Part shown: in pieces, positions 1-61,074 of the stretch
How the letters are laid out: each line of letters begins with the position of its first letter
How positions within the stretch are numbered: position 1 is the stretch's first letter
Assembly: GCA_964016885.1 (NCBI GenBank)
Contig: OZ024752.1
Coordinates: forward strand, 8,990,001-9,054,000
DNA length: 64,000 nucleotides
Direction: 5' to 3'
Origin: Eledone cirrhosa
Taxonomy: Eukaryota
Translations under genes and position numbers: made by a program
Notes under the pieces: model-generated
What the model saw: the letters and a program-made list of their open reading frames with translations, nothing else
Databases searched by the model: none
Told to the model about the DNA's origin: nothing

Positions 1-242
1 TTGAAAGAGGCAATTGTTTGTATTTATCAACTTTTTCTGGATCTAACATACCCACTGCTTCAACAATACATTCTTTAATTATTTCTACGTCACTAAATGG
101 TTTGCCTCTTTTTCCAAGTATATGTGCTATTTTGTAAGTAACATCAACGGCAGTGGATTATTCTTCACAAAAGGACTAAAAGACGTCTGTTGATAATGCC
201 TTTCATTTTTCAATTTTTGAAGTGCAGCTTGTCGAGATTCAC

Positions 243-905
243 CTTCATAGCTTACAGATTATGCACTTCCTATCTATACAGAGAGGTCTTTGAAAAGGGT
301 ATGTATTACTAATTACTGTTTTTATAGAGGTACCTGGTCTTTCCACTATCTTTATATTTAGTTTAAGTTTATCTAGGGCCCTTCTAAATTTGTAAGCTAG
401 TTCACCTCTAGGGGTTGTATTGATGAACATTACACTCTGGTATTTATTGCTATCATACTATCAGTTTATTTTATTAACCTTATTCCTAGTTCTTTCTATT
501 CTATTCCAAAATTTCCCCCTATACAAGGGGCAGGTCCCATTTGTATCATTATCTACCATTTTTTTCCATTTGGTTCTGGCTCCTCTATATACTCTGATTT
601 TATCTCTGATTGTAACCAGAGAACTGCATATGGTGGATGAAGTGTTGTATGTGTCTCTCTAGTTCTTTGGGGTTGCACATGCGGGACACGTTTCTCATCA
701 CCCGTACTAAATCCGTAATCAGTATGTTGATTTTGGTGTGATCCGAAACAGCTGAGTTTCGGTAGATCAGGTATTTGGAAGTCATGGGTTTGGCATAATG
801 GGAATGCAGGATTTGTTTTTTGTTATTAATGGTTTCTAACCAGAGCTCTGTCTAGTACAGGTAATCGATGGTAGGTCTTCTTGTCTGGGATGGGAATGGA
901 CTTAA
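243..905 (-). pseudogene. Penelope-like element fragment (RT C-terminus, thumb and linker), copy 1
   Basis: Frameshifted translation RLPVLD..WLETINNKKQILHSHYAKPMTSKYLIYRNSA..ILITDLVRVMRNVS..FSGY and FINTTPRGELA..IKIVERPG..C..C..C resembles the PLE thumb/linker. Confidence 0.75.
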
Positions 906-2300
906 GTGAGATCCTGCAGTAAGTACTTCCAAAGCAGGAAAGTAAACGTCGTGCATGCTCTCATAGGCATGGATATTCAACAGCATTTGACCAGATTTCT
1001 ATGGGATCCTTTTTAGCCTCAAAAAGGGATTTGAAGATACTATCTTCCCCCAACTCAAATAACTCGACTTGTAGTTCCGTAGGACCCTCGGATATATCTA
1101 CTAAATGTGGTTCAAATACCAGTTTCATAGCAGGTGTGTATTTGTCAAAATCTGAAAATCTTTCAGTATATTCTTCTATTAAAGAATCCAAGACACCTAC
1201 ATATCCATCAAATATTTTATTTTCACATTTCTGCTCATTCAACATTTTTGCTAGCTCCAGGAAGTGTTCTGCAGATATATCCGAGCGAGAGAGTAATGTT
1301 TTGAAAAATGTTAATTTTTTTTTTTGAAACGCTTGGATCTTTTGCCACATTTCATATATATGCTTTGTTTTACCTTGCAAGCAAATATTTAAATTATTTT
1401 GTTTTGTCATGATATCAGACAAAAATGCAATGTTTCTGCAAAATGCTTCATCTGATAGATCACAAAGTTTTCCTTGTTCGTGATAAAAGTTTAAAATTTG
1501 TCGTCGTAAAGTTAAAACTTTTATCAAAACCTCTCCTGTTGATAGCCAGCGAACCTTGCAGTAGATCAACACTGTATGTTTCCTCGTCTAAAGTTAGCAT
1601 CTGCCTAAATTCACGATGATGCATTGCATTAACGCAAATATGGTTGACAATCGCAATTGCTCTATCCAGAGCGTCTTGCAAAATGCAGTGAAATGATATA
1701 AATTTTTTCAAGTTTAAGTTTTCATAAAGCAATGAATCCTTTCATAGAGGGTGCGCCATCGGTGCAGACACTGACTAAATTACTGACATTTAATTGTAAT
1801 CGATGACATACCTCTCTGAAGTTTTCGAAAATGTCAACTCCGCGAGTTCTTCCAGTTAGCATACCCAGCGCAAGAAGTTCTTCGTAACACTGAACATCTT
1901 TAGTTACAGCACGAATAAAATATAAAACTTGCGACAAGTCAGTTTTATCAGTGCTTTCATCCAAAGCAATTGAAAAATAAACAATCTTCATTTTGTATTA
2001 TTGTACAAAGTTGCTCTGTTACATTTTGAGCTAATTCGTGCTGTCGATCTGTTATAGTTCTTCTTGAAAGAGGCAATTGTTTGTATTTATCAACTTTTTC
2101 TGGATCTAACATACCCACTGCTTCAACAATACATTCTTTAATTATTTCTACGTCACTAAATGGTTTGCCTCTTTTTCCAAGTATATGTGCTATTTTGTAA
2201 GTAACATCAACGGCAGTGGATTATTCTTCACAAAAGGACTAAAAGACGTCTGTTGATAATGCCTTTCATTTTTCAATTTTTGAAGTGCAGCTTGTCGAGA
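905..2300 (-). pseudogene. hAT transposase fragment (GTF2IRD2/EPM2AIP1/Spin-like), frameshifted, no TIRs seen
   Basis: GKPFSDVEIIKEC, LPLSRRTI, YFSIALDESTD, VCTDGAPSM, FHCIL, VRWLSTG motifs. Confidence 0.9.
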
Positions 2301-2305
2301 TTCAC

Positions 2306-2968
2306 CTTCATAGCTTACAGATTATGCACTTCCTATCTATACAGAGAGGTCTTTGAAAAGGGTATGTATTACTAATTACTGTTTTTATAGAGGTACCTGG
2401 TCTTTCCACTATCTTTATATTTAGTTTAAGTTTATCTAGGGCCCTTCTAAATTTGTAAGCTAGTTCACCTCTAGGGGTTGTATTGATGAACATTACACTC
2501 TGGTATTTATTGCTATCATACTATCAGTTTATTTTATTAACCTTATTCCTAGTTCTTTCTATTCTATTCCAAAATTTCCCCCTATACAAGGGGCAGGTCC
2601 CATTTGTATCATTATCTACCATTTTTTTCCATTTGGTTCTGGCTCCTCTATATACTCTGATTTTATCTCTGATTGTAACCAGAGAACTGCATATGGTGGA
2701 TGAAGTGTTGTATGTGTCTCTCTAGTTCTTTGGGGTTGCACATGCGGGACACGTTTCTCATCACCCGTACTAAATCCGTAATCAGTATGTTGATTTTGGT
2801 GTGATCCGAAACAGCTGAGTTTCGGTAGATCAGGTATTTGGAAGTCATGGGTTTGGCATAATGGGAATGCAGGATTTGTTTTTTGTTATTAATGGTTTCT
2901 AACCAGAGCTCTGTCTAGTACAGGTAATCGATGGTAGGTCTTCTTGTCTGGGATGGGAATGGACTTAA
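2306..2968 (-). pseudogene. Penelope-like fragment, copy 2 (duplicate of 243-905)
   Basis: Identical ORFs 2308-2493 and 2663-2848. Confidence 0.75.
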
Positions 2969-3169
2969 GTGAGATCCTGCAGTAAGTACTTCCAAAGCAG
3001 GAAAGTAAACGTCGTGCATGCTCTCATAGGCATGGATATTCAACAGCATTTGACCAGATTTCTATGAGATCCTTTTTAGCCTCAAAAAGGGATTTGAAGA
3101 TACTATCTTCCTCCAACTCAAATAACTCAACTTGTAGTTCCGTAGGAGCCTCGGATATATCTACTAAAT

Positions 3170-4140
3170 ATATCTACGGTAATGTTAATAAAAGTTTGGT
3201 CATACAGTATGACGCGTTCAGGGATCTGGGCGATCCTTTCGGGCCTCATTTGAACTAAAAGTTCGAGTCCTGTTCCACTGAACGCGTCACCCGATGCCTT
3301 TCCCATGGATATTAATGTGTCGTCGTCTAAGTCCAGGAAACCTGTCAATACCCACCATATGTCCATAATTGGAAGGATGGTGTGAATTTTTATTTTTTGT
3401 GTCCTACCCATGTATGTAGAGTAGAAGGTGGATGTGATTGGTTTTATTGACAGTTTCGCTGCTGTGTCCCTGTCATTCATGAGAATGTACGGGGACTCCC
3501 GTAGAGTCTTAACCTTCTGAATGAATATGATGTCTTTCATGACATCTTTTAAATGTTGGCTCAGCGCCAACATGGACGCCTTCCGTACGATGTTACAGAT
3601 GTTTGACAGTGTCCAGACCACTGCGGACAGACTGGACGAGATGGACATTGCTCGGACAGATGACCACCACACCACCCTCAAAACAGCCAGCGATAGATTC
3701 TTCCTGACACTCAAAGAATTCCTGAACCAAGACAGACTTTCTACTAGGGACCAGCTGGTCCCTGGTCCCAATCTTTAATGAACCCAGTTAATGATTTAGG
3801 GGCCAGTCTGCTCCCTCCCACCTTTTTTCTATACACTGTTCACTTTGCTGACATTTGTACATTATTCTGTGTACTATACATGCACCTTTGATGAGTTGTA
3901 GTGCACTGTACACAATAATTTCATTATTATTATTTAAAACCAGCTCTATCTCACTCTATGATGGTTGAGCTGGTTTTTTGGTTTTGTTTGAGACTGTCCT
4001 AAACATGACTGTTTAGGAGTCTCTGGCTTTTTAGTTCCGGGGGGGAGTGGATCGAAAATGATCCATTTTCCCCGTACACTACGTATTATTTGGCATCTGC
4101 CAGTAGCTCCTTAGCTTTGCTTATATCTACTGGCAGGTAC
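3170..4140 (-). pseudogene. Non-LTR ORF1 (gag-like) fragment, same family as 16330-17990, interrupted at ~3565-3945
   Basis: KDVMKDIIFIQK..ILM..D..AA...S..PI...TYMG shared with 17058-17537; DNA similarity of 3960-4110 to 17390-17520. Confidence 0.65.
3565..3934 (+). mobile_element. Probable 3' end of a retroposon (LINE/SINE tail) inserted in + orientation
   Basis: Interrupts the ORF1 homology and ends in CACTGTACACAATAATTTC(ATT)n. Confidence 0.4.
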
Positions 4141-4222: not shown

Positions 4223-5395
4223 GGCATACGTCAAAACGGCCGGTCACAAAAGTGAAACTAACTTTTGACAGTTACATACGTCATTACTTTCAATTTGGAT
4301 TGTGAAAATAACTACATAGTTATACGTTTGTTGCATATAAAATATAAATTGACGTACTTATGAAAATCCTTATTACACCCTATAAATAGCTGAAATACAG
4401 TTGATCATCTCGCCAAACTTGTTGGCACCAACTCTCTGCCGCCAAAGAAATTCAGCTAAATATGAGGGGAATAAAGCATCGCTTGTCCCATGCTGGCGAT
4501 GAAGCTTTTTCTTTGCACGGCTCCAAGTGTTCTCTATGAGTTGTGTGTGCACATTAGGGTCTTCTGGATCTACAAAGTTCCGTTGGTGCACAACAACATC
4601 ATGGAGGTAAATGCCACCTTGAATGTGTTCAATATCCGAATAGGAAGCCCAACCATCGGACATGATGTGGCTTCCTGGCAAAATCCATTGCTGTATGATG
4701 GGGACAAGAGTCTCACGGCTTCGATCTGGGACTTTGATGAGGCAGCAGCATCCAGAATGGCGTTCTACAGCGCCGAAGACCCAGTGGCCTTGTCTCCACT
4801 GGCCACGATGATACATTCTATGAAAGTATTTTGATTTGTCGATCTCAACAATGATCGACGAACCATTCTCATCGAATCCTCCAAGCTGTTGAGCCATATT
4901 TGATGTGACACTGTATTACAATCCAGCCTTTCGGTGCTTCGTTTTAAAAAAAAAAAAATTTCCCAGCCCTTCTGACGCCAATCTGTCTTTCTGACCCCAA
5001 GCTGCCCCTCTGACCCAAATCCCTTATCATTCTCTGTCCTTCTTATGACTCTACCTTAATTTCTTTGGCAACAGAGAGTTGGTGCCAACAAGTTTGGCGA
5101 GATGATCAACTGTATTTCAGCTATTTATAGGGTGTAATAAGGATTTTCAATATTTATTTATTTCAACACACAATGTCGTTATTTAAAAAAAAATTTTCTG
5201 TACACACAATACACAAAAAAAGAATAAAAAAAAATTATCACGTACACGCAATACTAATCAACAAAATTCACTTTCACTATTGAGACCTGTTGTAAAAAAA
5301 CAAACAAATTCACAATCCAAATTGAAAGTAATGACGTATGTAACTGTCGTCAAAAATTAGTTTCACGTTTGCGACCGGCCGTTTTGACGTATGCC
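4223..5395 (-). mobile_element. Merlin (IS1016/ISXO2-like) DNA transposon, internally deleted
   Basis: ~80-bp TIRs starting GGCATACGTCAAAACGGCCGG; 9-bp TSD GATTGACTG at 4214-4222 and 5396-5404. Confidence 0.92.
4373..4897 (-). CDS. Truncated Merlin transposase, catalytic domain only (174 aa)
   Basis: Near-identical to the C-terminus of 20413-21387; WVFGAVER, SDGWASY, HTQLIENTW; EIDES changed to EIDKS. Confidence 0.8.
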   Translation of the reverse strand: MAQQLGGFDENGSSIIVEIDKSKYFHRMYHRGQWRQGHWVFGAVERHSGCCCLIKVPDRSRETLVPIIQQWILPGSHIMSDGWASYSDIEHIQGGIYLHDVVVHQRNFVDPEDPNVHTQLIENTWSRAKKKLHRQHGTSDALFPSYLAEFLWRQRVGANKFGEMINCISAIYRV

Positions 5396-5469
5396 GATTG
5401 ACTGTGCATAACCAGATTCAGAAAGGGCCTTATTATAATATGCTGCATGGGCATTAAATATCTGCTTTT

Positions 5470-5893
5470 TAGTTCTGTCACATTGGTAATTCAATCCGAA
5501 TTCACTAAATTCAGATAGATTAAGATCTCCCTCTCAGAGTTGTCTCGTTATATTCCTCGAATTACCCCAATCTAGCCAATATCTGCTATTATCCAAGTAT
5601 GTACCCATAAACGGTCCTGATGCCAGACTGATACAGCCATCTTGAATGACGTAACTGTCGGCCCCTTGGTGGTGATCTTGTGAAAACTTTCCGTTGTTTA
5701 GTAATGTACCGTGTTGAATACAACTACCACCCCATTCAGTATTCGTTAATGGTTTTCTGAGTAGCGAATGATTTGTCCATTCATGTACGAACGTGTCTCC
5801 CTGTCGCAACTCCTTTACTTCGTGCAGCCCTCTCCAATCGTGTAAGAATCTCATCTTAATCTCGCATTTATTCTCCACGAATGTTCCTCCGTA
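5470..5893 (-). pseudogene. Probable endogenous parvoviral capsid fragment (middle region)
   Basis: VKELRQGDTFVHEWTN resembles the parvoviral VP LRTGD motif; lies next to NS1 and VP fragments. Confidence 0.5.
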
Positions 5894-5894
5894 G

Positions 5895-6186
5895 GTATTA
5901 AGAAAAAGAGAAGAAATGGTTTGTATGAGCACCTCTTCCACCAGCGAAGTCAACTTATATTCTATTCTATTTCAATATATATATAGACAGCGACAGCCAA
6001 AGACAACTGTTTGTTCTTTACCAAACAGCCCACAAGGCGCCTTGTGGGCTGTTTAGTAAAGAACAAACAGTTGTCTTTGGCTGTCGCTGTCTATATATAT
6101 ATATATTGAAATAGAATAGAATATAAGTTGACTTCGCTGGTGGAAGAGGTGCTCATACAAACCATTTCTTCTCTTTTTCTTAATAC
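5895..6186. repeat. Near-perfect ~290-bp palindrome with no spacer
   Basis: Arms are reverse complements centred on AAGGCGCCTT (~6034-6043); they differ by one mismatch and (TA)n length. Confidence 0.95.
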
Positions 6187-6212
6187 TAGTGCTTTTCTTC
6201 AAACTTCTTCAC

Positions 6213-6355
6213 CACAATCGATGGCAGGTCCAATATGGCGTCTATTTTATGTATATATATATTGTAACCTGATACACTGGTTCTTATGAATTTAATATAT
6301 TCTTATGTAATTTGATACTCACTTAGCCGCCATTTTGTTGTGACCATCGATTGTG
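6213..6355. mobile_element. Small MITE-like element
   Basis: Terminal inverted repeat CACAATCGATGG/CCATCGATTGTG with subterminal ATGGCG/CGCCAT; no clear TSD. Confidence 0.4.
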
Positions 6356-6448
6356 TAGTAGGTTATGAAATAATGTAGGTCATGCAAATAAAAAAAAATT
6401 TTTTGCTGATTGAAAAATTTATTTTATCCAATCAAAATACAGAGATTA

Positions 6449-7095
6449 TTATTCATAACGGCATTTAAAGTCTGAATGAGGAGGTGAATCACCATTCTCA
6501 AATGGATCATCACTATTGAAAAATTCATGACAATCGTCTTTTAAATGTTCAATTTCTTCTTCTGTGTAAGTCTTCTCTTCTTTTTCTGTTGTATTCGTAT
6601 TTATTTTCTTGTTATTATCTTCTTCTGTGTCTGTATTATCAAGTTTCCTTTTTCTGTCTGTAGTGAAATCTATATCGTAGTTCGTATACATAGTTGATTC
6701 TGGTACTTCGAGCATTTTAGTAGAAAGATATGTATTTTGTTCATAGTCTACTATGTACGTCTTCCAAATAATCAACCACATTAAAGGATTCAGTTCTTTT
6801 TGGCCCCATGACTTTAAGGCATCCATTGCTTTATGTGTTTCGTATATGAACATTCTAGCTCTCAATGCTGTCTCATCCTGCATTACGCGGTCCCATGGAT
6901 CGCTATTTCCTGTACTAATACAGGGTGTTCTGTGCATGATACGTTCGGCCTGGTGCTTTATGTTCACGTAGGTTTCGGTGCCTTCCAGAATACATTTGGC
7001 TTCAATATTAGCCGTAGTAAACCACATCTCGTCTGAAAATCATAGTCTTGTCTACGCAAGTCCCGAACGTGAAGTTATCGCTTCCTTGACACCTC
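6449..7095 (-). pseudogene. Endogenous parvoviral NS1/Rep, C-terminal half of the SF3 helicase plus acidic tail
   Basis: DNFTFGTCVDKTMIF(frameshift)DEMW (cf. AAV Rep NFPFNDCVDKMVIWWEE), KCILEG, VNIKHQ, TPCISTGN, ALRARM; AATAAA downstream of the stop. Confidence 0.85.
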
Positions 7096-7117
7096 ATCCT
7101 TGATTACCCATGTAGAA

Positions 7118-7744
7118 TTATTCATAGTTTGGTAAAAGCAACTGGTCTATTTTCGTTGGATAGATCATTTGAAATCCATCATTTGGAATATGTGACAGTC
7201 CACGTAGATTACTATATCCTATATACTTTCCTCTGTCCACATATACTTGGAAATACGGCAATGGATTACTGATAAATTGATCCTCTCCTTTTGCAACGAT
7301 CCATTCTGAACAGATTATATTTGATATTTTGAATCCAGCTTTTTGGACTCTATATTTCGTGGCCAGTTTTAGATTTGTTTCCCAGTCTATCGGTTTCACC
7401 CATGACGTCAGATAATACGGTACCAAATAATCTGCAGAAAAACAGTATCCCCTTGCCATTTTATTATCCAGACTAACTGGTGGATTTTTGTCTCCCTTTG
7501 TTTGTCTCAATGCAAAGAATTTGCCTGTCGCTTCATTCATGTCCGTACTCTTTACACAGTTTTGGAACTTCCTAGTGAAAACGACAGTTCGTCGAAAGGG
7601 TCCTGTAGGCTCGGGTATGTCTGCAGCAGCACCCTGGGCTTGGCCTCACCATCCACCTCCTCCATCCGTTCTCACAGTTTCTTGATCCGTTTCCATGCCA
7701 GCCATATTAACAGCCCCACCACCGCCAGCAGCTACTTTTGGCAT
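7118..7744 (-). pseudogene. Endogenous parvoviral capsid (VP) N-terminal fragment with an internal stop
   Basis: Gly-rich N-terminus MPKVAAGGGG..DGGGGW*G, then TVVFTRKF, VPYYLTSWVKPIDW, YRVQKAGFKISN, PYFQVYVD in one frame. Confidence 0.7.
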
Positions 7745-7749
7745 CCGTT

Positions 7750-9250
7750 TTAGTGTGTGTGTGGATGCTATTCTTATTACTAGGTTTCCTCATGGACATA
7801 TTGTGCGAGATAATGTTGTAGCTATGTGTTTTCGTAGGTAGGAACTCAATCTCTATATTATGGCCAGATCTAGCTAATGCTTGATTATAATATTGCGAGT
7901 TTTTGCTAAATATGTTTGCGTCATAGGATAGATTAGAGATTCTATTGGATACCCCCTTAGAGATAGAGTCTAATATTGATCTAGGGTGGTTAGACTTGGT
8001 ATCTACGTAAATGAGTTTTTCGTTAGGCTTATGGAAAGGTGTATATATCTTTGAGTCTAGGTATAGTCTGGCGTCTAGGAAGTTAACGTTTTTAGTGTTT
8101 TTGTCCATGGTGATACTAAGGTTATAGTTTTTGAATGTCCTATGCAATAGTTTTCTAGTTCTTTCTATATTGAATTTTTTATATTCTATAAGTAGAAGTG
8201 CATCGTCGCGGTACAAACCACCGTTGAGGTATGGAAGGTCCTTATGGATTTCATTAAGTAAGTATAGGCCGACCAAATCAGTGACCTGCGCCGAGTCACT
8301 AGACCCCATGGTTATATCGAAGTTGTTGTGCGTATCCTTGCGGGTCCATAATTGGTCTTCAAAGGTGATTATGGTTTTACGGGCCGCAAGGATGACATCA
8401 ATCTGGGTTCTAGTCAGGTCGCTATTGTTCATGGCCATGATTAGTGCCTTATTTAATAGGATAGGGGAAATAGAGGTGTAGTATGAATTGATATCAAATT
8501 GAATACATTTTTTGTCCTTGTTATTCTTGATATCTTTGAACGATTCAATAACTTCACCCATATGTGTTTAATCTGTGGGATGATTTTATCTAAAATTTTC
8601 TTACTGATAATGCCAATGTCAGACTTGGAAGGGCAGATAAGTCTAATTGAGGGGTTGCTGATGAAGTCCTCCTTATGGTCCTTCAGAGAGAATCTAGCGG
8701 GGTTTGGGGTATATGGTTGTGTATGCCTCTGAAGTCCTAGTTTAGACACTATATTATATCCCTCTAAATTAATATCCTCTAAGTTTTTCATAGTAGTTTT
8801 CTTGTAGCTTTTATGTAGTTCATTATATATAAACTTTCTATAAGTATTATAATCTAGGCTGTATACGTTATTAGTTTTATCCGCATGTACAATAATTTTT
8901 TTACTAGTTTTGAATTCATTAATACAGGTGTTAAGTTTATTTAAGAAGGTGTTGTTTCTATTACGGTGCTTATTGTATTTAATGTTCTTAACTAGTTTTT
9001 TTAGGTCATTTTCAAAGGAGTTTAGTAGTGTGTTATGAGGGGGGCTTCTAAAGGTTTTAAAGCCGAAGGAGTCAAATTTGTTAGTATTATTAACATTGTT
9101 AGATTTGTTTTTATCATAATGGAATGTCCTCCATCTCACTCTATTGATAAAGGAATTTACACTGTCGATCAACAATTTCTCATATGTGTTCTTGGATGGT
9201 ATTGGTATGTTCTTGGTTGACATGGAGAGTTGGTCTTTGATTAGCATACT
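7750..9250 (-). pseudogene. Penelope-like element RT, frameshifted, 3'-truncated before the GIY-YIG domain
   Basis: KNIPIPS..FINRVRW, ADKT, LKDHK, IRLICPSKS, QFDINSYY, FDITMGSSDSAQ, GGLYRDD, NFLD, SNHP. Confidence 0.92.
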
Positions 9251-9475
9251 GGTAATTTATTGTATGTCAGCTCAACAGTATGGAGCAGTTAATAGTATTA
9301 AGGATACTATTTATGGTTATGCAAATACAAAAACCTTTTGTAGTTATATATATTTTTACAAACCCTAAATAGTGATAGGCAGTAATTTAAATAGCTCAAT
9401 GTACTAACATCAGATGTTTTACAGAGCAGTTATATATAAGTTATAAGAATCAAAGTTCTGATCAAATCATTTATA

Positions 9476-9522: not shown

Positions 9523-10205
9523 ATTTATTAATGGATGATCACATATATGACCTCCTTTTCACCCCAAGAGACATACAGATACATATGCAAACATTGTTGC
9601 TTGGTAGTTCGACAACCATTATAATATTTAGTGTGGCAGTAGTATACATTTAAAGGTTACATTCATATCAAAAGTTAAAGTTAAAATACAACATGAAATT
9701 AATGCGATAGGATAGTCATAAGCAGTTATTGAGTGCAATAGTTACACGTGTGGCACGCACGTGTGTCTTATTTTGTATAATGCTATAATGCGGCAGAGTG
9801 TTACATGCAATAGAAGCACTTAAACGGGTGATCAAGAGTGTCAAGGGGGTTGAACTGGTAATGAATCCTTTATACGAATGTTATAGAAACCTGTGCGTGG
9901 AGAAATATTATAAATATTAAATATTGGAAATGTGTAGCAAAGCGATGATATGGATGATACGTACAGCACCATTTTCTCAGTCTGGGGAGCATAATATCCA
10001 GATTATATGCCCCTCACATAATCTACGACGATTCAATATTGGGCGTTTGACGATTCTGTTAGAGTATCGTAGTTTGTTGGTCTTTAGCTCAATATAGCAG
10101 GTTGTTAAGTTGCGAGAATCAACATCGAATCTGGGTCAGTGCATGTCATATTGGATGTCAAAAGTTAACTATATATATATATATATATAAATATGGTTCA
10201 ATAAT

Positions 10206-10490
10206 ATGGAAAATAAAAATAATCATAAGTTCATTCAAGTGGACATAGCTAGTTACTATTCCTCAATAACTCCTAACCTACCAAATAAGGTGCTATCCTA
10301 TGCATATAAACACACGGATCTATCTAGTGATGAGATAAATATCATTTTAACGGCAAGGCGAACATTAATAGATTTTAATAATGATCTTTGGACTAGATCG
10401 GATAGGCAAAAAACTTTGACATTACTATGGTCTCGTCTGATTCGGCGCAAGTTACCGATCTTGTGGGAATTTTCATCCTTAATCCTTTAG
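10206..10490 (+). pseudogene. PLE RT fragment in + orientation (exception to the strand bias), next to (TA)n
   Basis: FIQVDIASYYSSI..ILTARRT..FNNDLWTR; DSAQVTDLVG follows in a shifted frame. Confidence 0.85.
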
Positions 10491-10639
10491 TATTCGCATT
10501 AATTTTCAAATGTTATGCTTATCTGTTCGCATTATTCAGTTAATCATACTCACGAGGGTTATCAATTTTATTTGTTTGTAATTTTCTTCATTTTCTATGT
10601 GCAGACTCGAAATTTTGTCAGATGTTTAAATATCAATAA

Positions 10640-11240
10640 TTTACAAATATATAATTTTACCTGATTTTTTTTTGGTCAAATTTGACTTTTATGGGCAGGT
10701 GAAATTAATTAATAGGGGCATTTGAAGTATCAACCAGGTGCAAATACTGGTTTAATTTTAAATACGTTGTTTTCGGTATAATACTTGATATGTAAGAATC
10801 ACTAAACCTTATCTCAGTGTTCCAGTAATTCCACAGTCTTGGAAATTGTTTTATACCGAATATAATATTTATGGTAAAAAATGCTTGCATTTCCACAGAT
10901 CTGTCAGTCGCCAAACAGATCGGGTTTTTTCTTGATTTAAAATCTGTTCTTGGGCATATCGATTAAACTCTTCTGCCACAACTTCGAAGAAAGTTTGTGG
11001 TAAAAAAAAAAAGAAATAATCCAGTGCTTTAGCATCCGGAGCTAACGTGTGTTATGGACCAATATTTTGAATAAAATCGGGAACATATATTGGTGTGGTA
11101 TTTTCAACCACGATGCTGAAATATTTTCAATGGCACCCTGGAGACCTCCTTCGTTTTCACTTTCAAAACAACAATCACCGTCGGACGAAATTTCAGAAAT
11201 ATAAACATCAGATTCATTTGAAGATAAATCACTAATATTA
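10640..11240 (-). pseudogene. piggyBac (PGBD4-like) transposase N-terminal fragment
   Basis: Acidic N-terminus, ALDYFFFFLPQTFFEVVAEEFNRYA, EMQAFF..GIKQFPRLWNYW..YLHLVD. Confidence 0.8.
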
Positions 11241-12800
11241 TCGCACCGAGAATAGAGTGGGGTAGGTCCGCTACAACAAAAATCCATTTGAAATCCCGAC
11301 GCAAAGCTAGGTCCAATGATAGAGATATTTGTCCATAATTTTTGATAGGAGACTGGTTTACTGCATACAAGGAAATACCGGAAAAATTTGGCTTGGTACA
11401 GCTGAAACGAAGGGGCCAAATACTGCAACTAGATCCTGTGTCGACCATCAACGATTTGTTTGGAATTCGATCTTTTATGAAAAAGGCACGATAAGGAGAA
11501 TTAATGGGGGAGAGATCTGCCGTGCCCAGACTCTCCAGGTTTAGTTTTCCGAAGTCCCGAAAGAGCAGGGTTGAATACAATGATTCACCTTTTCACGAAA
11601 ACGCACATGAATACCAACATAAAGACGAGTCGTTGGCGGGGATTTTGGCGCGACGATGAAAAGAAGGAGAACGACTTCGTGGATGCCATCTGGAATGTGT
11701 TCGTTCCCGACACAGTTTAGTCACTTGACAAGTTAGCGCATCAATGGCTCTCAATATAGAGTCCTCACAAGGTGGAACAGGCTGTGCTTTAAAAGTAGAA
11801 GAAGCAATGTGTGGATCTGCCGAAGTAGGTACTCAAGAAAATTCCACTATGCGGTTTGCTGAGGCTGCAATTTGGTCCAGTATGTTTGCCAGTATCGTCT
11901 GCGCATTTGTTGGCAAACAGGAGAAGAATAATTGTTTTACGAAAGAGTTGTCCTCTGCTGTTGAGTCGCTCAGTTCCCGGATGCGCCGTAAAAACTGGGA
12001 CGGGGTTCTATCTCCCAGGTTTTCTTCCTCCAACAAGGAACAAAATTTGCTCTCAGGCAAACGGCTGTTCCGTCTCAGCACTTCTGCCTTGATAAGTGAC
12101 ACCTTGTGGGGGATCTGGGAGGATATCCTTTACTGACACGGTGAGCGAGGCAGGGATTCCGCTTATGAGCACGTGCAACCTTTGTTGTACCGCTTGGACG
12201 CCATGTGCAACAAAATACGAATCTAGTTGTGCAAACCACAACTCTGCATCACCTGAATATGTCCATAGCGAAGAATTGCTCTTCATGAATGTAGTAGCTG
12301 CTGGGTGAAATGTTCTCCCTTTTTTAACTGCCACACATGTGCTTTAACTTCCGCGAATCAGCCAATGACAACGCATTTGAAAGAAAATTAGTTGTATTTT
12401 CAAAAATATATGCGCACGTGCGTGGTGGTAACATAAATAGTTTAAGTGATGTAACACGGAGGAAGCAAAATGGCGAATACAAAACGAAGGCTTTGTTGAA
12501 AACGAAGAAACGAGGTGCAAAAAAAATTTTTTTTTTTATGCGTATCCGGAAATTATCATTTTTTGGGGGGTTGGTGTTTCTTTACGTCGGGTCACCATTT
12601 TAGTGTCCTGCCAGACCCAGGGTTATTTACTCAAGTAAATGTCACCGGAATCTAACTACTAAATTTTATAAAGAAAAGGATAAGATATTTTTACAACACC
12701 ATATCGAATGAGAGTTAATTCCCATTACAAAGGTAATGATAAAACGTAAGCAGTTTCTCGGAACGGATATCGAATGTCTTCATTTTTATTGTAGCTTCAT
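11240..12800 (-). mobile_element. 5' part of a Ty3/Gypsy element (PBS, gag, protease), truncated
   Basis: PBS TGGTGACCCGAC at ~12586-12597; gag AELWFAQLDSYF, EENLGDRTPSQFLRR, CWYSCAF; protease LMVDTGSS..WIFVVADLPHSILGA. Confidence 0.88.
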
Positions 12801-13289
12801 GTTATAGTTGCTGTAAACAAATATTCTCGTACATAATTAGGTATAGTCCAGATCCATGATAGGTGGTCAGAGATGAAATGTATGTTTATTTTTGTTGTAG
12901 CATAAATAATGTTGGTTAACTTGTAAGGTTGACGTTACACATAAAAATGAGGTTACAAAAGGGAATGCGCCAAAAAGGAGTGGAATGCTTTCAATCATTT
13001 CCACATAATATGGCCTAGTATCCAAAGGCCAGGCGAGAATCAGAGACTCAAATACATCAGAAGTCTCTACAAAAAAGCGACGAAACTAGGCAGGTACATT
13101 CCAGAATGTCAGAGGATAAAGTTTCCCAGTAGCATGGCGAATTATTTTTTGCCAACCACCACGATACGTACTCATACTTGGCATCGACGATATGAACAAA
13201 ACGTTTTCAGATTGGTGACAAATAGAACATAGGCCAAAACCAGAAGTATCACCTAAACCATCAACAAGCAAAGGACCGATAATACTTAT

Positions 13290-13690
13290 TTCAGGTCATC
13301 CAGTCGTTTTTTAATATCTTTCTGCAGTTTGTTGTTGGTGTTACGTCCTTTGAATTTAATTTTAAGGATTAAGTCCATAAGGTCCTGCTCAAATGCATCT
13401 AATAGTGGGTTAGTGGGTGGGTTTTTACACGTTCTTAAACCAAATTTGTTGTTTACACCACTTTCTGATGGTGAGTTCATACGGCTTCTATCATAGTGGA
13501 GTGTTTTCCACCTGACACGTCGAATGAATTCGTTTGTTTTTTGTATCATACTCAATAAGTATTCCTTTTTACCTTGGGTTGGAATATTTTTAAGTGACAT
13601 ATCCAGGTAGTGCTTTTCCATTGTTGTGGTACGTTTGCTGAGTGGGTTGCTCAACTTTACAGGAGGTAAATATATAGTATTATCCATAGT
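13290..13690 (-). pseudogene. PLE ORF 5' fragment
   Basis: MSLKNIPT..FIRRVRWK..NPLLDAFEQDL. Confidence 0.85.
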
Positions 13691-13959
13691 GTTGTAATAT
13701 GAATATTATACACAGTAGATGGACAGCTCACGTAGGGTTTGCTCGACGGTTCCAGTTGTAGTTTCAAAAGTAATCCGGAGAAAATAGAAGGATTTAAATG
13801 GATACAGTTCAGTAAAAGGAATTTATTAACACGTGTTTCAATAAGTTATATAACCTGAAAACAGCTGCTATCTACAAAGTATTAATTATGCAGACACTCA
13901 ATATTTCAATGTTATTTTCAACTACCATTTTATCAGAATAATATCATTGAGAACTTGTT

Positions 13960-15525
13960 TGGTTTTTATAGAGACTATTAATATTGTTACAACATCACAT
14001 GCATAAACAATATTCTTAATGAGGCAATTGCCTTTTAAAGGCCAATTTTTACTCCTACAATTACAATTACGGTGTGTGTTGTTATTCATACCTTGGGATG
14101 GCCTGTTGTTAAAACCCACTTGACATGGAATGTGTTCATCCGAGGTGTTGTTAGTGAGCTAGGTTGTTGTTGGTTATTCACAGATTTAATATCCTCAAAT
14201 CCTCTAATTTTCCGATTATTAGTACGTGCCAGGTGGTAAGTCAGATTCGGTGTAGTGGAGTACGATAATTTAATCGTATTTTTATTGAATATACTATGGT
14301 ATCTACTGCCTGGCGGGAAATTCTTTTCTAGGATTAAGAAGAAGGTTTTGGGAATGTTAGTTGTATGGTGGGTTAAAAAAGGTGTTCATTCTTGTATTTT
14401 TTCTATTTTTCCCCACTACAGTCCGGTTACCACCAGAACTTCTACTCTCCCCTTCGCTGACGAAACCAAACCCACTACATACCTGCCGTGAAACTAACAT
14501 TATATTGGTCAATACGCCCACCTGAAACTCCACCATGAGTACAGTTTCTAGATCTCGACACACTTCCATTAGTGTAACCAGTAGGAGTATTTGGAGGATG
14601 TATATTAGGGCCATTGTGTTTGGGTCGGGCTGAACTAATCACCATATGAGTTCTATTAACATTATAATTCAAGAACATATGTGCGTAATGACATTATTAT
14701 GTCTAGCTTCGGTGGATTGTGAGCTAGTAGGTACGTAATATAGTTTATTCTTATAGCCAGACTTGGCTAGTGCCTCGTTATAATAATCCACATTAGAGTT
14801 GAAAATACCTTCTCCGCATGATAAATGGCTGATCCTATTCGATACTCCTTTAATAGTAGCATTCAGTAGTGATATAATAGGGTGGTTGGATCCAGCATGT
14901 ACATAAGTTAGTTTCTCATTAGGTTTATGGTAAGGTGTGAAAGTCTTATTTTCTAGATCTAGTGTTGCATCCAAGAAATTTACTGTTTTATTATTCTTAT
15001 CAATAGTAATACTAAGGTTAAAACCTTTAAAGAATTTGCACAGGTCTTTCTTTGCCCTTTCAATACTAAATTTTTTATGCTCAAGGGTAAGGAGGGCGTC
15101 GTCTCGGTATAAACCACCACAAAGATATGGAAGTGCCTTATGGAGCTCATGGAGTAGGTAAAGTCTGACTAAATCAGTTACCTGAGCAGAGTCTCCAGAT
15201 CCCATTGTGATATCAAAGTTATTGGTTGTGTTTTTCCTAGTCCATAATTGTTCCTCAAATAATATTAAGGTTTTACTTGGGATCTGGTTAGATCACTATT
15301 CTGCATGGCCATGATGAGGGCCTTATTCAAAAGGATGGGAGATATAGATGTGTAGTAAGAATCGATATCAAACTGGACAAACATAAGGGATTTATGGTTA
15401 CTAATGCTGGAGAACCATTTGATTACTTCCTCCGTATTCCCCCACAAATTAAGGTAAATTTTGTTTCTGATTGCTGGAATAACTCTGTCTAAAATCTTCT
15501 TACTTATGATCCCAATGTTCGACTT
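13960..15525 (-). pseudogene. PLE RT, linker and start of GIY-YIG, degenerate
   Basis: QFDIDSYY, MGSGDSAQ, GGLYRDD, FFNPPYN, CNCRSKNWPLKGNCLIKNIVY. Confidence 0.9.
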
Positions 15526-15729
15526 GATGTGTATGAATATAACAAAAGTCTCAGTTGTGTATATAATGTTTAATTAACAAGTTGAAGTTATGTAGAACAG
15601 AATTGTTGACATGTCAAGAGAAGATGAAATATGAAGTAAAGTTATTTGTTACCGCTTTCAAGTTAGCTCGCAAGAGACCATGTTAGGGTTGCCAGAGAGT
15701 AGAGACTCTCTTTGCGAAAGGGCAAATGA

Positions 15730-16040
15730 GGTTTCTATGGAATTTACTAGTATTGACATGATTTTTCCTGTATTTAACATTCCTTACCATAATTAAAAAA
15801 TCATTTTCAAAGTCATCTAATAAACTGTTATGGATTCTAATATAAGTTCTAATGCCATACCTATCTTCCCAGGTCACCGGTTGGTTATCATCTTGGTTTC
15901 TACCAAAGTGGAAGGCTTTCCACCTAATTCTCTTAACAAAAGAGTTAACACTAGCAATGAACAACCTCTCATATGTATTCTTAGATGGGATGGGTATGTT
16001 CTTAAGTGACAAAGGTAGGTAGTCTTTGGTTAGCATACTG
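15730..16040 (-). pseudogene. PLE ORF 5' fragment
   Basis: SLKNIPIPSKNTY..FVKRIRWKAFHF. Confidence 0.85.
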
Positions 16041-16074
16041 TCAAGTTAATATAAGCATACACCAGTGGATGTGT

Positions 16075-16335
16075 GGGTTATATTTATTAGCTCCCCAGTC
16101 ATAGATTGCTCTCCCGGGCTGAGCCTTGCTCTTTCTTAAGCTCACCCGGACCTCACTCATAACAAGCCGGTGGTCACTGCCCAATGTACTGAAATAGTTG
16201 TATGGTTCTGTGTTTGAAACACTATTTCGCCACTTTTTCCTCACCAGAATGAAATCAATCTGGGACTTGGAGAGGTGCATATCTGAGATGTAGGTCCACA
16301 TCTTCCCCGGATTCTTCCTAAACCTTAGGTTGGTC
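16075..16335 (-). pseudogene. RTE-like LINE apurinic endonuclease fragment
   Basis: FRKNPGKMWTY..SQIDFILVRKKWRNSV..GSDHRLV. Confidence 0.85.
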
Positions 16336-32384: not shown

Positions 32385-32463
32385 CAATATGTATATATAC
32401 ATACACATAAATACACAAACACACTATATATACATACACATACACATGAATACACAAACACAC

Positions 32464-55400: not shown

Positions 55401-58089
55401 AATGGGCACCTATCTGGTAGGTGAGAGTTACAGTTTGAGGCGCTATTTTGTGCAGCTTCTACACTCCTGTTTAGTACTCTGTTATAAGTGGGTTGTGATA
55501 TATGCTGACCCACCTTAATAGCAGGTGTGTTGATTAACAACTGTGCGATATCCGTACAGTTCTTATAGATGGCCTCGTGGAGTGGAGTATCCCCTCTTTT
55601 ATTCCGACAATTTATATCCTCTCTAGAAGACAGCAAGGATTTCACCTCTTCATAGTTTTTTCTGAAAGTAGTAGAAATAAATACAAATACACATATATAG
55701 GAAATGAAGGCACATGGCTTAGTGGTTAGTGTGTTCTACTGAAGATCATAAGGTTGTGAGTTTGATTCCTGGGTATGTCTTGTGTCCTTGAGCAAGACAC
55801 TTTATTACATGATGATCCACTCCACTCAGCTAGCAAAACTGAGTTGTACCAGTAATACAAAGGGTCAGCCTTGTTAATCTGCTTATCCTTGAGAACTACA
55901 ATAAAGGTACACATATGGGTTGATGAGGTACTTACAGACATTTGTGTGGGATAGACCTGTGAAGGCTAGAGTGTACTTAATGAGTATATTTCTGTGGTGA
56001 TTTATGCAGGGTAGTGGGTATCCTAGTTTAAAGCTATGTTGTGTTGGTTTGATTCACGGAGGTTTGACTCTTATGAATTTAGTGGCAATTCTGTCTGCAG
56101 AAGATAGATCTTTCTAACTTATTGTTAAGTAGCCTTTTTACATTTTTGAGGATATACATTAGTTCTAGATCACATAGCCCGCAGTGGGACATACCTGTAC
56201 TATAGGTTTTAGCAGCCGACAACTTCGACCAGTTAATACTGTAGTTAGTGCTGCTGTCCTTCAGTTCCCATATTTTTTTGGCGAGGTTGTGGAACCCATA
56301 AGTGCACGGTTTTTCATTGAGTGCCTGTGCACATACCATCTTTTTTTAAAAGAACCCGCGGTGGATCCTATGTAATTCCAGGTGGAGTTATCCGAGTTGA
56401 CCGTTCACATGTATACTAGGCTCGAATCGAGACATCTGTTCGCCAATGGGCACCTATCTGGTAGGTGATAGTTACAGTTTGAGGCGCTATTTTGTGCAGC
56501 TTCTACGATACCCGTACAGTTCTTATAGATGGCCTCGTGGAGTGGAGTATCCCCTCTTTTATTCCGACAATTTACATCCACTCTAGAAGACAGCAAGGAT
56601 TTCACCTCTTCATAGTTTTTTCTGAAAGTAGTAAAAATAAATACAAATACACATATATAGGAAATGAAGGCACATGGCTTAGTGGTTAGTGTGTTCTACT
56701 GAAGATCATAAGGTTGTGAGTTTGATTCCTGGGGATGTCTTGTGTCCTTGAGCAAGACACTTTATTACATGATGATCCACTCCACTCAGCTAGCAAAACT
56801 GAGTTGTACCAGTAATACAAAGGGTCAGCCTTGTTAATCTGCTTATCCTTGAGAACTACAATAAAGGTACACATATGGGTTGATGAGGTACTTACAGACA
56901 TTTGTGTGGTATAGACCTGTGAAGGCTAGAGTGTACTTAATGAGTATATTTCTGTGGTGATTTATGCAGGGTAGTGGGTATCCTAGTTTAAAGCTATGTT
57001 GTGTTGGTTTGATTCACGGAGGTTTGACTCTTATTAATTTAGTGGCAATTCTGTCAGCTGAAGATTGATCTTTCTAACTTATTGTTAAGTAGCCTTTTTA
57101 CATTTTTGAGGATATACATTAGTTCTAGATCACATAGCCCGCAGTGGGACATACCTGTACTATAGGTTTTAGCAGCCGACAACTTCGACCAGTTAATACT
57201 GTAGTTAGTGCTGCTGTCCTTCAGTTCCCATATTTTTTTGGCGAGGTTGTGGAACCCATAAGTGCACGGTTTTTCATTGAGTGCCTGTGCACATACCATC
57301 TTTTTTTAAAAGAACCCGCGGTGGATCCTATGTAATTCCAGGTGGAGTTATCCGAGTTGACCGTGCACATGTATACTAGGCTCGAATCGAGACATCTGTT
57401 CACCAATGGGCACCTATCTGGTAGGTGAGAGTTACAGTTTGAGGCGCTATTTTGTGCAGCTTCTACACTCCTGTTTAGTACTCTGTTATAAGTGGGTTGT
57501 GATATATGCTGACCCACCTTAATAGCAGGTGCGTTGATTAACAACTGTGCGATATCCGTACAGTTCTTATAGATGGCCTCGTGGAGTGGAGTATCCCCTC
57601 TTTTATTCCGACAATTTACATCCACTCCAGAAGACAGCAAGGATTTCACCTCTTCATAGTTTTTTCTGAAAGTAGTAGAAATAAATACAATTACACATAT
57701 ATAGGAAATGAAGGCACATGGCTTAGTGGTTAGTGTGTTCTACTGAAGATCATAAGGTTGTGAGTTTGATTCCTGGGGATGTCTTGTGTCCTTGAGCAAG
57801 ACACTTTATTACATGATGATCCACTCCACTCAGCTAGCAAAACTGAGTTGTACCAGTAATACAAAGGGTCATCCTTCTTAATCTGCTTATCCTTGAGAAC
57901 TACAATAAAGGTACACATTCATGTCTGTAAAGTGGTTGGTGATAAGAAGGGCATCCAGACCAGGATACTGGAATAGCCTAGCATCCTCATCTAGGAGAAT
58001 CAACTGATACATTAGTAAGGCCTAGTGATGGTGAGGCTGAGATGCTGAAAGAGCCAAGCACCTTCACCGAGGAGCATCAAGTGACACAT

Positions 58090-59965
58090 CAGTTTTGCTG
58101 CTGCGCGTTTGTATGCGCTTGCGGTTGTGATGTGTTTATGCTTACAATTTGGTGCTACGTTATGCATAGGTGCGGTTGATTTACTAGAGATATTTCTGTG
58201 GTTGATCCTGCGTATGTGTGATTCTATATTTGCTGCTGTCGAGTATGAGAGTTTTATAGTAAATCTATTGAGTATTTTGTGATATCTATGTGAGATAGGG
58301 AAGTGTTTATCTATTAGTTTAAAGAATGTCGAGGGCAATCTAGTTTTTATAGAGGAGTTGAACCATAGGTATTTTCTTTGTCTGTTTCTTCTATTGTTTC
58401 TTGGGTTTACGTTATTAGTGTTTTGACCGTTTACTCCAGGTGCTACGTGCCTAACCCTATGTCTAGTCCAGCTATTTCTATTATTGTGTGAGCGGTTGGT
58501 GTAGTAGTTACTAGGATTGTTTACGTTGTCTTTATTCACTATATACTGCAGTTTATCTTTATGACCGGCCCTACGTAATGCTGCATTATAATAGTCAGCA
58601 TGCTCGTTAAAGATTTCTAGGTTAGAGGATAAGCGGGATATTCGGAGGGATATACTACGTGCTATGGATCTAATTATGGATTTGGGGTGGTTTGAGTTGT
58701 AACTAATGTAGGCAAGATATTCATTATTTTTGTGGAAAGGTTCTATTAATCCCGTATTTAGAGTTACATCTTGAAAGTTTACCTTCTTATGGTTTAGTTC
58801 GTAGGTAATACTTAGGCCTAGTTTTTTGAAGAATATTCTAATATTTTTTCTTAGTCTTTCCATGCTCTGGTTGTTTAGGTTCCTAGCTATAAGTAGCGTG
58901 TCGTCCCTATAAATTCCTCCTTGGAGGTTACTGAATTCCTTATGTAGGTTGTGTGCTATGAATAAATAGCTCCACGATATCTGTGATTTGCGCAGAGTCA
59001 TTTGATCCCATTGTTATATCGAAGCTATTTATCCTATCTTTTCTTACCCAGTAGCTATTTTCAAATTTTATGATAGTCCTTCTAGCCGCTATTATTGTTT
59101 CAATTTCATCATGGGTAAGATCAGAGTTATTTTGGGCAAATATAAGCGCCTTATCTAGGGTAGCTGGGGATATGGATGCATAGTAGTCATCTATATAAAA
59201 TTGTATGAAGTTACACGTCTCCCTATTTTGTATTTTATTGAACCATTTAATTGCCTCGTTAGTGTTGCCCCATAAATTGATTTCTAGTTTACCCTTTATT
59301 TGTGCGATTACCCTATCTAGAATGTTCTTGCTAATTTTACCTATGTCTGACTTGGATGGGCATATTAATCTAATGGTGGGGTTAGTTTCAAAATTATTTT
59401 TGTGATCCTTCAGGTTAAATGTTGGGTTGCACGGGGTTAGCGGTTCGGTCCTATCGGGAATTCCGAGTTTGTTAACTATCTTGAGGCCCTCCACGTTAAT
59501 GCTGGTGAGTGTAGATTCATTTGTCTTTTTATATTTTTTATGTAGTTCACGCTGGATAAAGCTATTGTATGTGTTAATGTCCATAGAGTATACGTTTGAT
59601 GTTTTGTCTGCTTTTACTATGATACCGTTAGTGTCTTTTAGATTTTTTAGTAGTGTATTTAAGTCATTTTGTAATTTGTTGTGATTTGTTCCTTTTTTAA
59701 ATTTAGTTTCACTTATCATGATCATTAGGTCCAGCTCGAAGGCATCGAGTGCGGGGTTGTTTGGCGGGTTTGTGCAGGATTTAAACCCGTAATTCTCCTT
59801 AGAAAATTCCTTTGCGTTGGTATTCGGTCCCTTATCGAAATGGTAAGCTTTCCATCGGACCCTGCGGATGAAATCATTAGTCCGTCGTATCATGCCCAGT
59901 GTATAGTCCTTTTTTGTAGGTATAGGTATGTTTTTCAGTGACATACCTATACGGTGCTTCTCCAT
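58090..59965 (-). pseudogene. PLE RT and linker with one frameshift, cut off before GIY-YIG
   Basis: MSLKNIPIP, ADKTSN, LKDHK, FDITMGSNDSAQ, GGIYRDD, SNHP, LWFN, KLSYST. Confidence 0.93.
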
Positions 59966-61074
59966 GTTGTTGTCGTGCGTTAATGGTGTTGCTCGACCAG
60001 GTGGGAGCTAAATATATATATAGATACATACATACACATAAATACACAAGCACACATATATATATGTAGGAGGTGAGTTTTATTGTAGTATAATAAAGCA
60101 ATGCAGATATCGGATAAGTAGCACTCTACAGTTTGTAGGACTGGAGTATAAATAATATAAGATCAAAAGATGGTTAAAAGAGTTCCATGTATTTTATTAT
60201 GCGCATTTCAAAAACAAATATCATCACATCATGCAATAACATTTGCGTTTTCGTCAGATAAAATAGAGAGACATGATATGAAGGTTAAAACACACTTGTG
60301 AATAGTGCAGTTTTAAATCAACATATGAAATTAGTTTTAGATTGATGTGTGATATTGGGAAAAAATTGAGGGGGGCGGTTGGAAAGTATGAAAAAGAGGA
60401 GGAGATGAGAGTAAAAAGTGGAGGAGTATAATGAGGAAGGATGAGATAGGAGGAGAGATGGGTGATAGAGAGAGAGAGATAGCTTTTATAACTGAGAAAA
60501 ATATATTTTACATAGAGAGGTTGAAAAACCGTTGGAAGATAATATATAAATTAAAAGAATTTGAAAATTAACGAAGAGAAAAATGTTAAATTAAGGTTTG
60601 TATAGTTAAGGGTTTAATAATATGTGCGATGAAAAGAAATTGTTAATATGTATTAAGAATAATATTTAAGGGTTTAATAATATATGCGATGGAAAGAAAT
60701 TGTTGATATGTATTATTAAAAAATATAAAAATAGAGCAATAGTAATGTAATTAAGGATATATTGTGAAAGAAGTAGAAGAGAGGATGAATAAGTGTAATA
60801 TGTATAAGTTAGATGAGCATGAAAGGGAGAAAAAAATAATGAATTGAGGATGAATAGTCTAACGTCAAAAAAATGTTTACGAAGGATTTTTTTTAAGGTG
60901 ATATAAAGTAAGAATATATTGTGCTGTGTAATAATTGTTACTACGTTAGGCACAATGATAATTGAGAAGTGTCTCGGAAGAAAAGGTACAGATTAGGGGT
61001 TAGAAATTAAAAGAAAGAGAAAAGAAAAGGGAAAAGAAAGAAAGGGAAGTGATAAATAGGAGTGAAATAGAATG

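Follow-up and report, generated by a model that had tools for sequence, protein, structure and literature searches.

Why do fragments of unrelated transposons and viruses lie side by side in one part of an octopod genome, nearly all of them reading on the same strand? The stretch in question, referred to here as the window, comprises 64,000 nucleotides of the Eledone cirrhosa assembly GCA_964016885.1 (3.0 Gb; contig OZ024752.1, C12:8,990,001-9,054,000), and a first-pass annotation had read its positions 1 to 60240 as a candidate uni-strand cluster of PIWI-interacting RNAs (piRNAs). Our analysis supports that reading, and the main predictions that DNA can test were borne out: the strand bias exceeds that of control windows, runs across element classes, is antisense to an intact plus-strand gene, NAF1, and recurs behind a second gene, FAN1. 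We consider it probable that the window belongs to a larger uni-strand piRNA cluster fed by read-through transcription of NAF1, a candidate whose piRNA output is predicted from the DNA.

The window was compared with 100 kb of flanking DNA on each side, with nine 40-kb control windows picked blind at round-number positions, and with the DNA around 11 further parvovirus loci. Coordinates outside the window are given as the C12 position minus 8,990,000. A Pfam scan of 244 stop-to-stop open reading frames (ORFs) of at least 58 amino acids (aa) on both strands, which excluded the interior of a tandem array, matched Merlin/ISXO2 twice, piggyBac, Gypsy gag twice together with protease, reverse transcriptase (RT), RNaseH and integrase, an RT of a retroelement without long terminal repeats (non-LTR), a zinc-knuckle ORF1 and ankyrin. 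All of these matches were on the minus strand, and none of the 244 ORFs gave a plus-strand match to a transposable element (TE) domain. Pieces of Penelope-like elements (PLEs), hAT and parvovirus yielded no TE or virus Pfam match inside the window and were identified by tblastn or blastp to Pfam-labelled ORFs in the flanks and at other loci. NS1 and VP below are parvoviral proteins, and LINE and SINE stand for long and short interspersed nuclear elements. The window contains the following elements:

1-3170, minus: hAT and PLE fragments with a 2063-bp tandem duplication (1-1106 = 2064-3169, 99.6%).
3130-4109, minus: LINE ORF1-like piece in two parts, separated by an inserted segment of about 380 bp (strand not assigned) that has a 6-bp duplication.
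4223-5395, minus: Merlin 1, rearranged internally, with terminal inverted repeats and a 9-bp target duplication (PF12762, E 9e-22).
5459-7741, minus: parvovirus-derived VP N-half, NS1 C-half, 128-nt palindrome (5975-6102) and VP C-half (55-79% aa identity to flank NS1/VP ORFs).
7710-9256, minus: Penelope-like RT fragment.
10194-10513, plus: short PLE piece, an exception in orientation.
10708-12343, minus: piggyBac fragment adjoining a Gypsy gag-protease fragment (PF13843, E 1e-7; PF23055, E 6e-9).
About 12966-13284, plus: parvoviral NS1 piece, an exception in orientation (72% aa identity to residues 81-141 of the L022 NS1; 70% nucleotide identity to flank copies).
13289-16045, minus: at least two PLE fragments.
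16044-19949, minus: non-LTR pieces in scrambled order, namely endonuclease end, zinc-knuckle ORF1 and RT (PF00098, E 7e-4; PF00078, E 3e-10).
20257-21864, minus: Merlin 2, whose transposase frame runs 329 aa without a stop; it has terminal inverted repeats and a 9-bp target duplication (PF12762, E 6e-23).
22650-25057, minus: Penelope-like element from RT to a GIY-YIG-like end.
26416-31348, minus: Gypsy from gag to integrase, frameshifted, with a 74-bp direct terminal repeat (PF23055, PF00077, PF00078, PF17917, PF00665).
33306-57918, minus: ankyrin/PLE tandem array of 24 units.
58012-60007, minus: Penelope-like RT, two long frames.

The first-pass annotation had described about 20 unrelated fragments with almost no unique DNA between them. 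The diversity of classes is confirmed, and coding blocks cover 71% of positions 1-33300 and 83% of 1-60240, but about 40% of the latter interval is the single 24-unit array. Both Gypsy elements read minus, as had been stated (Pfam gag twice plus pol domains). The plus-strand PLE piece had been recognized as an exception to the bias, whereas the plus-strand NS1 piece had been missed; the supposed plus-strand retroposon tail at 3565-3934 is an insertion that splits the ORF1-like piece, and its strand could not be fixed. A Tx1 label was dropped in favour of LINE ORF1-like only, and the name RTE we take to be a label for the non-LTR RT. In other copies of these non-LTR pieces, the sequence at 19433 is joined to that at 16089.

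Within the window, 17 blocks read minus and four plus (p=0.007), or 13 and two (p=0.007) once the tandem duplication, a 75-bp inverted Merlin bit and a doubly counted piece were collapsed. The polarity does not stop there. Between -16.2 kb and +106.7 kb nearly every match is minus, and beyond both ends the strands are mixed. These limits enclose a polarised domain about 125 kb long (C12:8,973,800-9,096,700) with the window wholly inside it; the interval 1-60240 is polarised as claimed, and is part of a larger feature. Its two arms beyond the window are as follows:

-16185 to -1 (L019:3815-L020:10000), minus except one 183-bp plus-strand PLE: left arm with piggyBac, PLE, parvovirus, non-LTR RT, Gypsy and hAT.
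66856-106710 (L021:2856-L025:2710), every block minus: right arm with Helitrons, PLE, three VP-NS1 parvovirus units and fragments, hAT, pogo and LINE.

Downstream of the NAF1 stop codon, 40 of 43 TE or parvovirus coding blocks are on the minus strand (p=3e-9), counted after removal of four tandem-duplication blocks, the 75-bp Merlin bit, a doubly labelled NS1 piece and an intronic Helitron. The bias is shared by DNA transposons (13:0, minus to plus), retroelements (21:2) and parvovirus (6:1); PLEs are the commonest blocks, and only 3/43 are Gypsy. The query library was partly drawn from the domain itself, and a recount with 42 queries from outside the region gave 36 minus and five plus blocks. 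In the flanks, every Pfam-matching ORF among the 119 scanned (L018-L025) is minus. The right arm also holds two minus-strand frames of 333 and 245 aa (L022:4872-6540) without a Pfam match, which we counted as a DNA transposon by presumed resemblance to transposases.

The bias exceeds that of the nine control windows, where 90 of 178 within-window pairs among 48 blocks were concordant, as expected by chance. The domain differed from the control majority strand (p=0.005), and the flanks outside it carry seven plus and three minus blocks. Domain tiles hold four to eight families per 40 kb, and controls one to three. Such dense, diverse TE fragments with a strong strand bias are as found in uni-strand piRNA clusters. 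Chance or an assembly artefact can be practically dismissed as the source of this pattern: chance is already rejected by the p value obtained with duplicates collapsed, and short-read contigs cross two parvovirus-PLE junctions at single-copy depth, in reads possibly from the assembly's own sample. What the assembler may have mis-counted is the array, whose copy number is given as assembled. The three sequencing runs are genomic-DNA-like and from one sample, possibly the assembly source, so they are not independent of the assembly, and the summed depth of short-read contigs gives no copy number. Tandem repeats outside the array make up 3% of the domain versus 42% and 18% of the flanks, and one SINE family has three matches in the domain versus 31 in the left flank, which suggests that the domain is built from added material. 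Its observed-to-expected CpG ratio (CpG o/e) does not mark it as a methylated gene body.

Which strand would be transcribed? NAF1 lies on the plus strand at C12:8,951,530-8,970,801 (-38470 to -19199), with nine exons, GT-AG at all introns, a stop-free frame of 666 aa and a Gar1/Naf1 domain (PF04410) in two exons. Its stop codon at -19199 is followed after about 3 kb by the first polarised block at -16185, which is how read-through clusters begin. Because this intact plus-strand gene ends 3 kb before the block, read-through from it would be antisense to the elements; the likely transcribed strand is thus the plus strand, fixed by NAF1 independently of the transposons and in agreement with the precursor proposed earlier. 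Two other placements were rejected: a cluster inside a giant intron, as NAF1 ends before the domain, and a left edge at the Helitron at -24.6 kb, as this sits in a NAF1 intron.

A similar arrangement is present at C18:15.00-15.09 Mb (L092-L094, L067-L072, L095-L096), a second polarised cluster of at least 90 kb whose far end lies beyond the sequence examined. The locus was reached through its parvovirus genes, and its elements read plus. A minus-strand gene at higher C18 coordinates was predicted beforehand, and Pfam then gave the HTH, SAP, TPR and VRR-NUC exons of FAN1, the last visible coding exon ending about 2 kb before a plus-strand frame that we take, by resemblance, to be transposase-like. 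Behind FAN1, 27 of 31 blocks are antisense to the gene, as are 40 of 43 behind NAF1 and as is seen in read-through clusters, and exceptions become more frequent with distance (10:0, 9:1 and 8:3). The contents include parvovirus NS1 twice, a 547-aa piggyBac frame, Gypsy, Helitron and many non-LTR RTs.

The same geometry could in principle arise in a read-through zone that has no piRNA function, where open chromatin draws insertions, sense copies are purged because they would be expressed from the host promoter or disturb the 3' end of the gene, and antisense copies accumulate neutrally. This explanation accounts for the orientation relative to NAF1 and FAN1 and for the fading bias at C18, and TE blocks in NAF1 and FAN1 introns are also antisense in 4/6 cases. 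We regard it as unlikely. It leaves unexplained the concentration of rare classes, with DNA transposons forming 14 of 45 domain blocks versus 2 of 48 control blocks (a comparison in which the library favours the domain), in addition to seven parvoviral blocks; no transposase Pfam match was found among 124 control ORFs. The 20 kb behind a FYVE-domain exon in a control window hold one TE block, and antisense enrichment behind genes in mouse gonocytes marks the most productive piRNA clusters and not read-through genes generally, according to the accessible text of PMC11615739.

Several observations weigh against a read-through piRNA cluster. An ordinary AATAAA lies about 435 nt past the NAF1 stop codon. 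On the plus strand of the domain AATAAA is not depleted (111 observed versus 94 after base shuffling; the tandem array contributes about two per unit), whereas controls are depleted (462 versus 602). One control window is itself 5:0 (LINEs only), and the controls pooled give 16 plus and 32 minus blocks. Around the 11 other parvovirus loci (18 of 29 Parvo_NS1 matches were examined), non-viral blocks are co-oriented with the viral element 52:13, of which C18 contributes 25:5; this is significant against 50:50 and not against the control majority strand (p=0.13). Six of these loci are polarised, one has no other block, and those on C19, C14, C3 and C23 are unpolarised. The smaller polarised patches around parvovirus genes are at C25 0.583-0.603, 7.435-7.465 and 7.906-7.926 Mb, C27 17.60-17.65 Mb and C7 5.23 Mb (9:1, 8:0, 6:0, 7:0 and 5:0, respectively). 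Besides C18, a host-like frame lies upstream on the predicted strand at two loci, a zinc finger on C23 and, at C25 7.9 Mb, a plus-strand 854-aa frame that ends 12 kb upstream and for which a homologue search gave no useful result. In the neighbouring DNA examined at C25 0.59 Mb, C25 7.45 Mb, C7 and C27, Pfam gave no host exon.

Polarised loci without a visible host gene, the normal NAF1 poly(A) hexamer and the 3-kb gap to the first block would all suit a piRNA cluster of the flamenco type that has its own promoter and merely adjoins NAF1. We consider this improbable, more so than a functionless read-through zone: both loci that can be delimited begin about 2-3 kb from a stop codon on the matching strand, the CpG-rich and mostly non-repetitive stretch from -40 to -35 kb coincides with the 5' end of NAF1, and near the 3' end of the gene CpG o/e is only 0.38-0.42. 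Transcription reading on from NAF1 remains the preferred source of the putative precursor.

The elements did not arrive together. As the first-pass annotation had held, the two Merlins are independent minus-strand insertions, each with terminal inverted repeats and a 9-bp target duplication, and the empty site of Merlin 2 is present in other copies of the host repeat. The parvoviral segments and a captured piece of host ankyrin gene bear on the same point, because a single mechanical event, in which Penelope or Helitron machinery joined RNAs or DNAs head to tail into a giant chimeric element, would also yield uniform orientation. In its favour, PLEs form the most frequent class of block, many fragments adjoin each other directly, no match to the ankyrin-PLE junction lay elsewhere among the 41 scored, and in Aedes about 90% of endogenous viral elements (EVEs) run the same way as their nearest TE (PMC7161354). 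These points notwithstanding, such an origin is very improbable: both Merlins came in by cut-and-paste, a single event would not have produced parvoviral blocks so divergent, the captured ankyrin piece contains intron sequence and a SINE, and the model would not explain why the orientation is tied to NAF1 and FAN1. We know of no strand preference of cut-and-paste Merlins, which argues that their orientation reflects retention. Because cut-and-paste elements and intron-bearing host DNA share the bias, the sequence evidence favours selection acting on completed insertions over joint reverse transcription.

Endogenous parvoviral genes were identified by PF01057 in four flank ORFs and PF08398 in two (an SF3 helicase NS1 and a VP bearing a phospholipase A2 domain, PLA2), and one NS1 frame is 78% identical to an Octopus vulgaris NS protein, its sole named relative. 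The SINEs, too, are similar to those of octopus. Four of the 29 genome-wide Parvo_NS1 matches lie inside the domain. Its nine parvoviral segments fall into two lineages and are 66-79% identical over long matches, so by their divergence the parvovirus integrations in the domain are separate, repeated events. The usual parvoviral gene order has NS first. Here, VP stands immediately before NS1 on the same strand with a gap of at most 75 nt at eight junctions in five loci, the rearranged window copy being excluded; among 18 distinct same-strand VP/NS neighbours, VP comes first in 12 and NS in six, one of those six being tight (L022-L024; L077, L078, L079, L101, L102; L085). No case of a capsid-first parvovirus was found in our literature search. 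The 128-nt palindrome at 5975-6102 is possibly a viral terminus; it was rejected as proof of one, as hairpins with arms of at least 22 nt occur 34 times in 360 kb of controls. A PDB search with the VP piece gave no useful result, and an Atlas search with the parvoviral VP C-half returned scores below 0.9.

Other parvoviral insertions were observed in passing. At C23:3.29-3.32 Mb (L084-L086) an element with NS before VP lies antisense, 3.5-7 kb beyond a C2H2 zinc-finger exon. The insertion on C14 (L102:3164-8525) has VP copies facing each other around NS in a 2066-nt, 100% identical inverted repeat and is likely very recent, and NS1 matches on C10 and C998 have an E-value equal to that of C14. 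At the C18 locus (L071:7044-9998) a Gypsy pol frame continues in frame into parvoviral NS1-like sequence. In the right arm (L022:7493-8206), a LINE ORF1-like frame contains a 66-nt NS1 piece that is 91% like the neighbouring element and is probably a local templated insertion.

Each unit of the array, about 1043 bp long, joins the 3' end of a PLE to about 500 bp of ankyrin gene sequence, intron and exon together, that derives from a dispersed family. Twenty-three of the units share 98.4-100% identity. The ankyrin part has 12 parent-like matches at 90-95% on C18, C27, C26 and C9, and the family copy on C18 has a death-domain exon 2.2 kb downstream of its ankyrin exon (L090, L091). A transcript of the array in the plus sense would yield RNA antisense to host ankyrin genes. 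A homologue search with the ankyrin exon gave no useful result, and substitution strand asymmetry in the array was uninformative with only 32 variable columns.

On the NAF1 read-through model, some RNA polymerase II would pass the NAF1 poly(A) site and copy the plus strand, and processing of this RNA would yield phased piRNAs with a 1U bias, able to pair with the mRNAs of transposons and viruses. Insertions would land in both orientations, antisense copies being retained and sense copies lost, and nesting, deletion and local duplication would produce the abutting fragments. Cognate sequences exist elsewhere in the genome: over the non-LTR, PLE and Merlin pieces, contigs of at least 95% identity reach depths well beyond that of a single copy, the Helitron is 97-98% identical at the aa level to an unbroken ORF on C27, and the piggyBac is 91% identical to one on C18. 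With such near-identical family copies, the predicted piRNAs would have targets. The genome has four Piwi-domain loci (PIWI and AGO clades not told apart), and O. bimaculoides is among the molluscs studied for Piwil1 and Piwil2 (PMC6128900). More tentatively, as an idea that we hold at somewhat short of an even chance, octopods, which seem to have no small interfering RNA (siRNA) pathway, may store an inherited defence memory, directed at both viruses and transposons, in piRNA traps that lie behind housekeeping genes and are fed by read-through (NAF1, FAN1 and possibly more). Such traps would log repeated infection by an as yet undescribed capsid-first parvovirus lineage and aim 24 antisense exon copies at an expanded host ankyrin/death-domain family.

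A few features lie apart from these subjects. Positions 62239-63216, at the AT-rich end of the window, contain a 224-bp inverted repeat pair (97%), and 61441-62196 repeats 31642-32393 at 89%. A minus-strand CHCH-domain exon (L014:758-1069) lies about 69 kb left of the window. An Atlas search with the PLE frame returned HTH_animal clusters at 0.95-0.97, as a lead only, and a tRNA scan gave no useful result.

The first-pass annotation had likened the locus to flamenco of Drosophila and to Aedes clusters as an antisense trap, and the mosquito half of that analogy is the better one. Drosophila flamenco and flam-like clusters resemble the domain in exceeding 100 kb, in their strand bias and in tolerating sense insertions far from the promoter, as at C18; flam-like clusters were detected by the same strand-bias signature in DNA and validated by small RNA (PMC10643416). 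However, the LTR bias of flamenco is reported for Gypsy alone (PMC10643416), whereas here Gypsy is a minor component and the DNA transposons are uniformly oriented. Membership in that group was rejected, as no Gypsy-driven enrichment or bias was found; the locus would work like flamenco without being one. Since the bias here is not Gypsy-specific, the read-through clusters of mosquitoes and mammals are the closer model.

Read-through piRNA clusters are described from four mosquitoes, with antisense viral elements in two Aedes species (Qu et al., bioRxiv 2022.08.22.504762). In the accessible text of that study, mosquito core clusters, like the present domain, begin right after a gene on the same strand (expressed there) and carry mostly antisense viral elements; they need no promoter of their own, as is predicted here too. 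Read-through and piRNAs were measured in mosquitoes and are predicted here, and the load here differs in comprising a single-stranded DNA (ssDNA) parvovirus, DNA transposons, Helitrons and PLEs. EVE cluster 38 of Aedes aegypti is of similar size (143 kb versus about 125 kb) and likewise has TE-EVE hybrids on one coding strand, but a putative promoter of its own with a Ci site has been proposed, and densovirus goes unmentioned in the accessible part of that report (PMC7161354). piRNA clusters behind genes are also known from mouse, human and hamster (PMC11615739). The mammalian pre-pachytene clusters termed piC-DoG, like the domain, pack antisense TE fragments beyond the poly(A) site of an intact gene and extend up to at least 100 kb; they hold LINE-1 and endogenous retroviruses, whereas the domain has ten classes of element plus an array built on a captured host exon (PMC11615739).

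Molluscan piRNA clusters have been described in snail, oyster, scallop and others (PMC6128900, PMC11067994). Those of a slug are uni-strand and antisense to packed TEs, as here (PMC11615739), those of a pond snail are enriched for Gypsy and DNA transposons (PMC6128900), and those of PMC11067994 span 2.7-17 kb versus about 125 kb here. The accessible text of these three reports mentions no upstream read-through gene, parvoviral content or cephalopod cluster, and a search of full-text literature, with most subscription journals outside it, found no paper that describes piRNA clusters or their upstream genes in cephalopods, or parvoviral clusters in these animals. For O. bimaculoides the reported number of small-RNA loci is about 5,700, more than half of them in the piRNA size range, and endogenous small interfering RNAs (endo-siRNAs) or their pathway were not seen in molluscs in the available part of the same source (PMC12479628). 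In starfish and anemone, parvovirus-like elements are the source of antisense small RNAs with 1U (PMC6085071), and parvovirus-related sequences are known from molluscs, octopus being unmentioned in the accessible parts of PMC5013282 and PMC11357303.

Within the literature searched, the loci reported here, with their strands and driver genes named, would be the first piRNA clusters of such build described in a cephalopod, and parvovirus genes offer a marker for locating such loci from DNA alone. They raise the questions of whether read-through cluster formation also operates in Spiralia, whether virus-derived piRNAs stand in for a seemingly missing siRNA pathway in molluscs, and whether a piRNA locus may regulate an expanded host gene family. 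If the far-reaching proposal above is true, gene read-through clusters would, together with those of mosquitoes and mammals, occur in all three bilaterian branches. Compared with these known systems, the mechanism is likely one already described, and what is new is the lineage and the load, namely an ssDNA virus, DNA transposons, Penelope elements and an amplified host exon.

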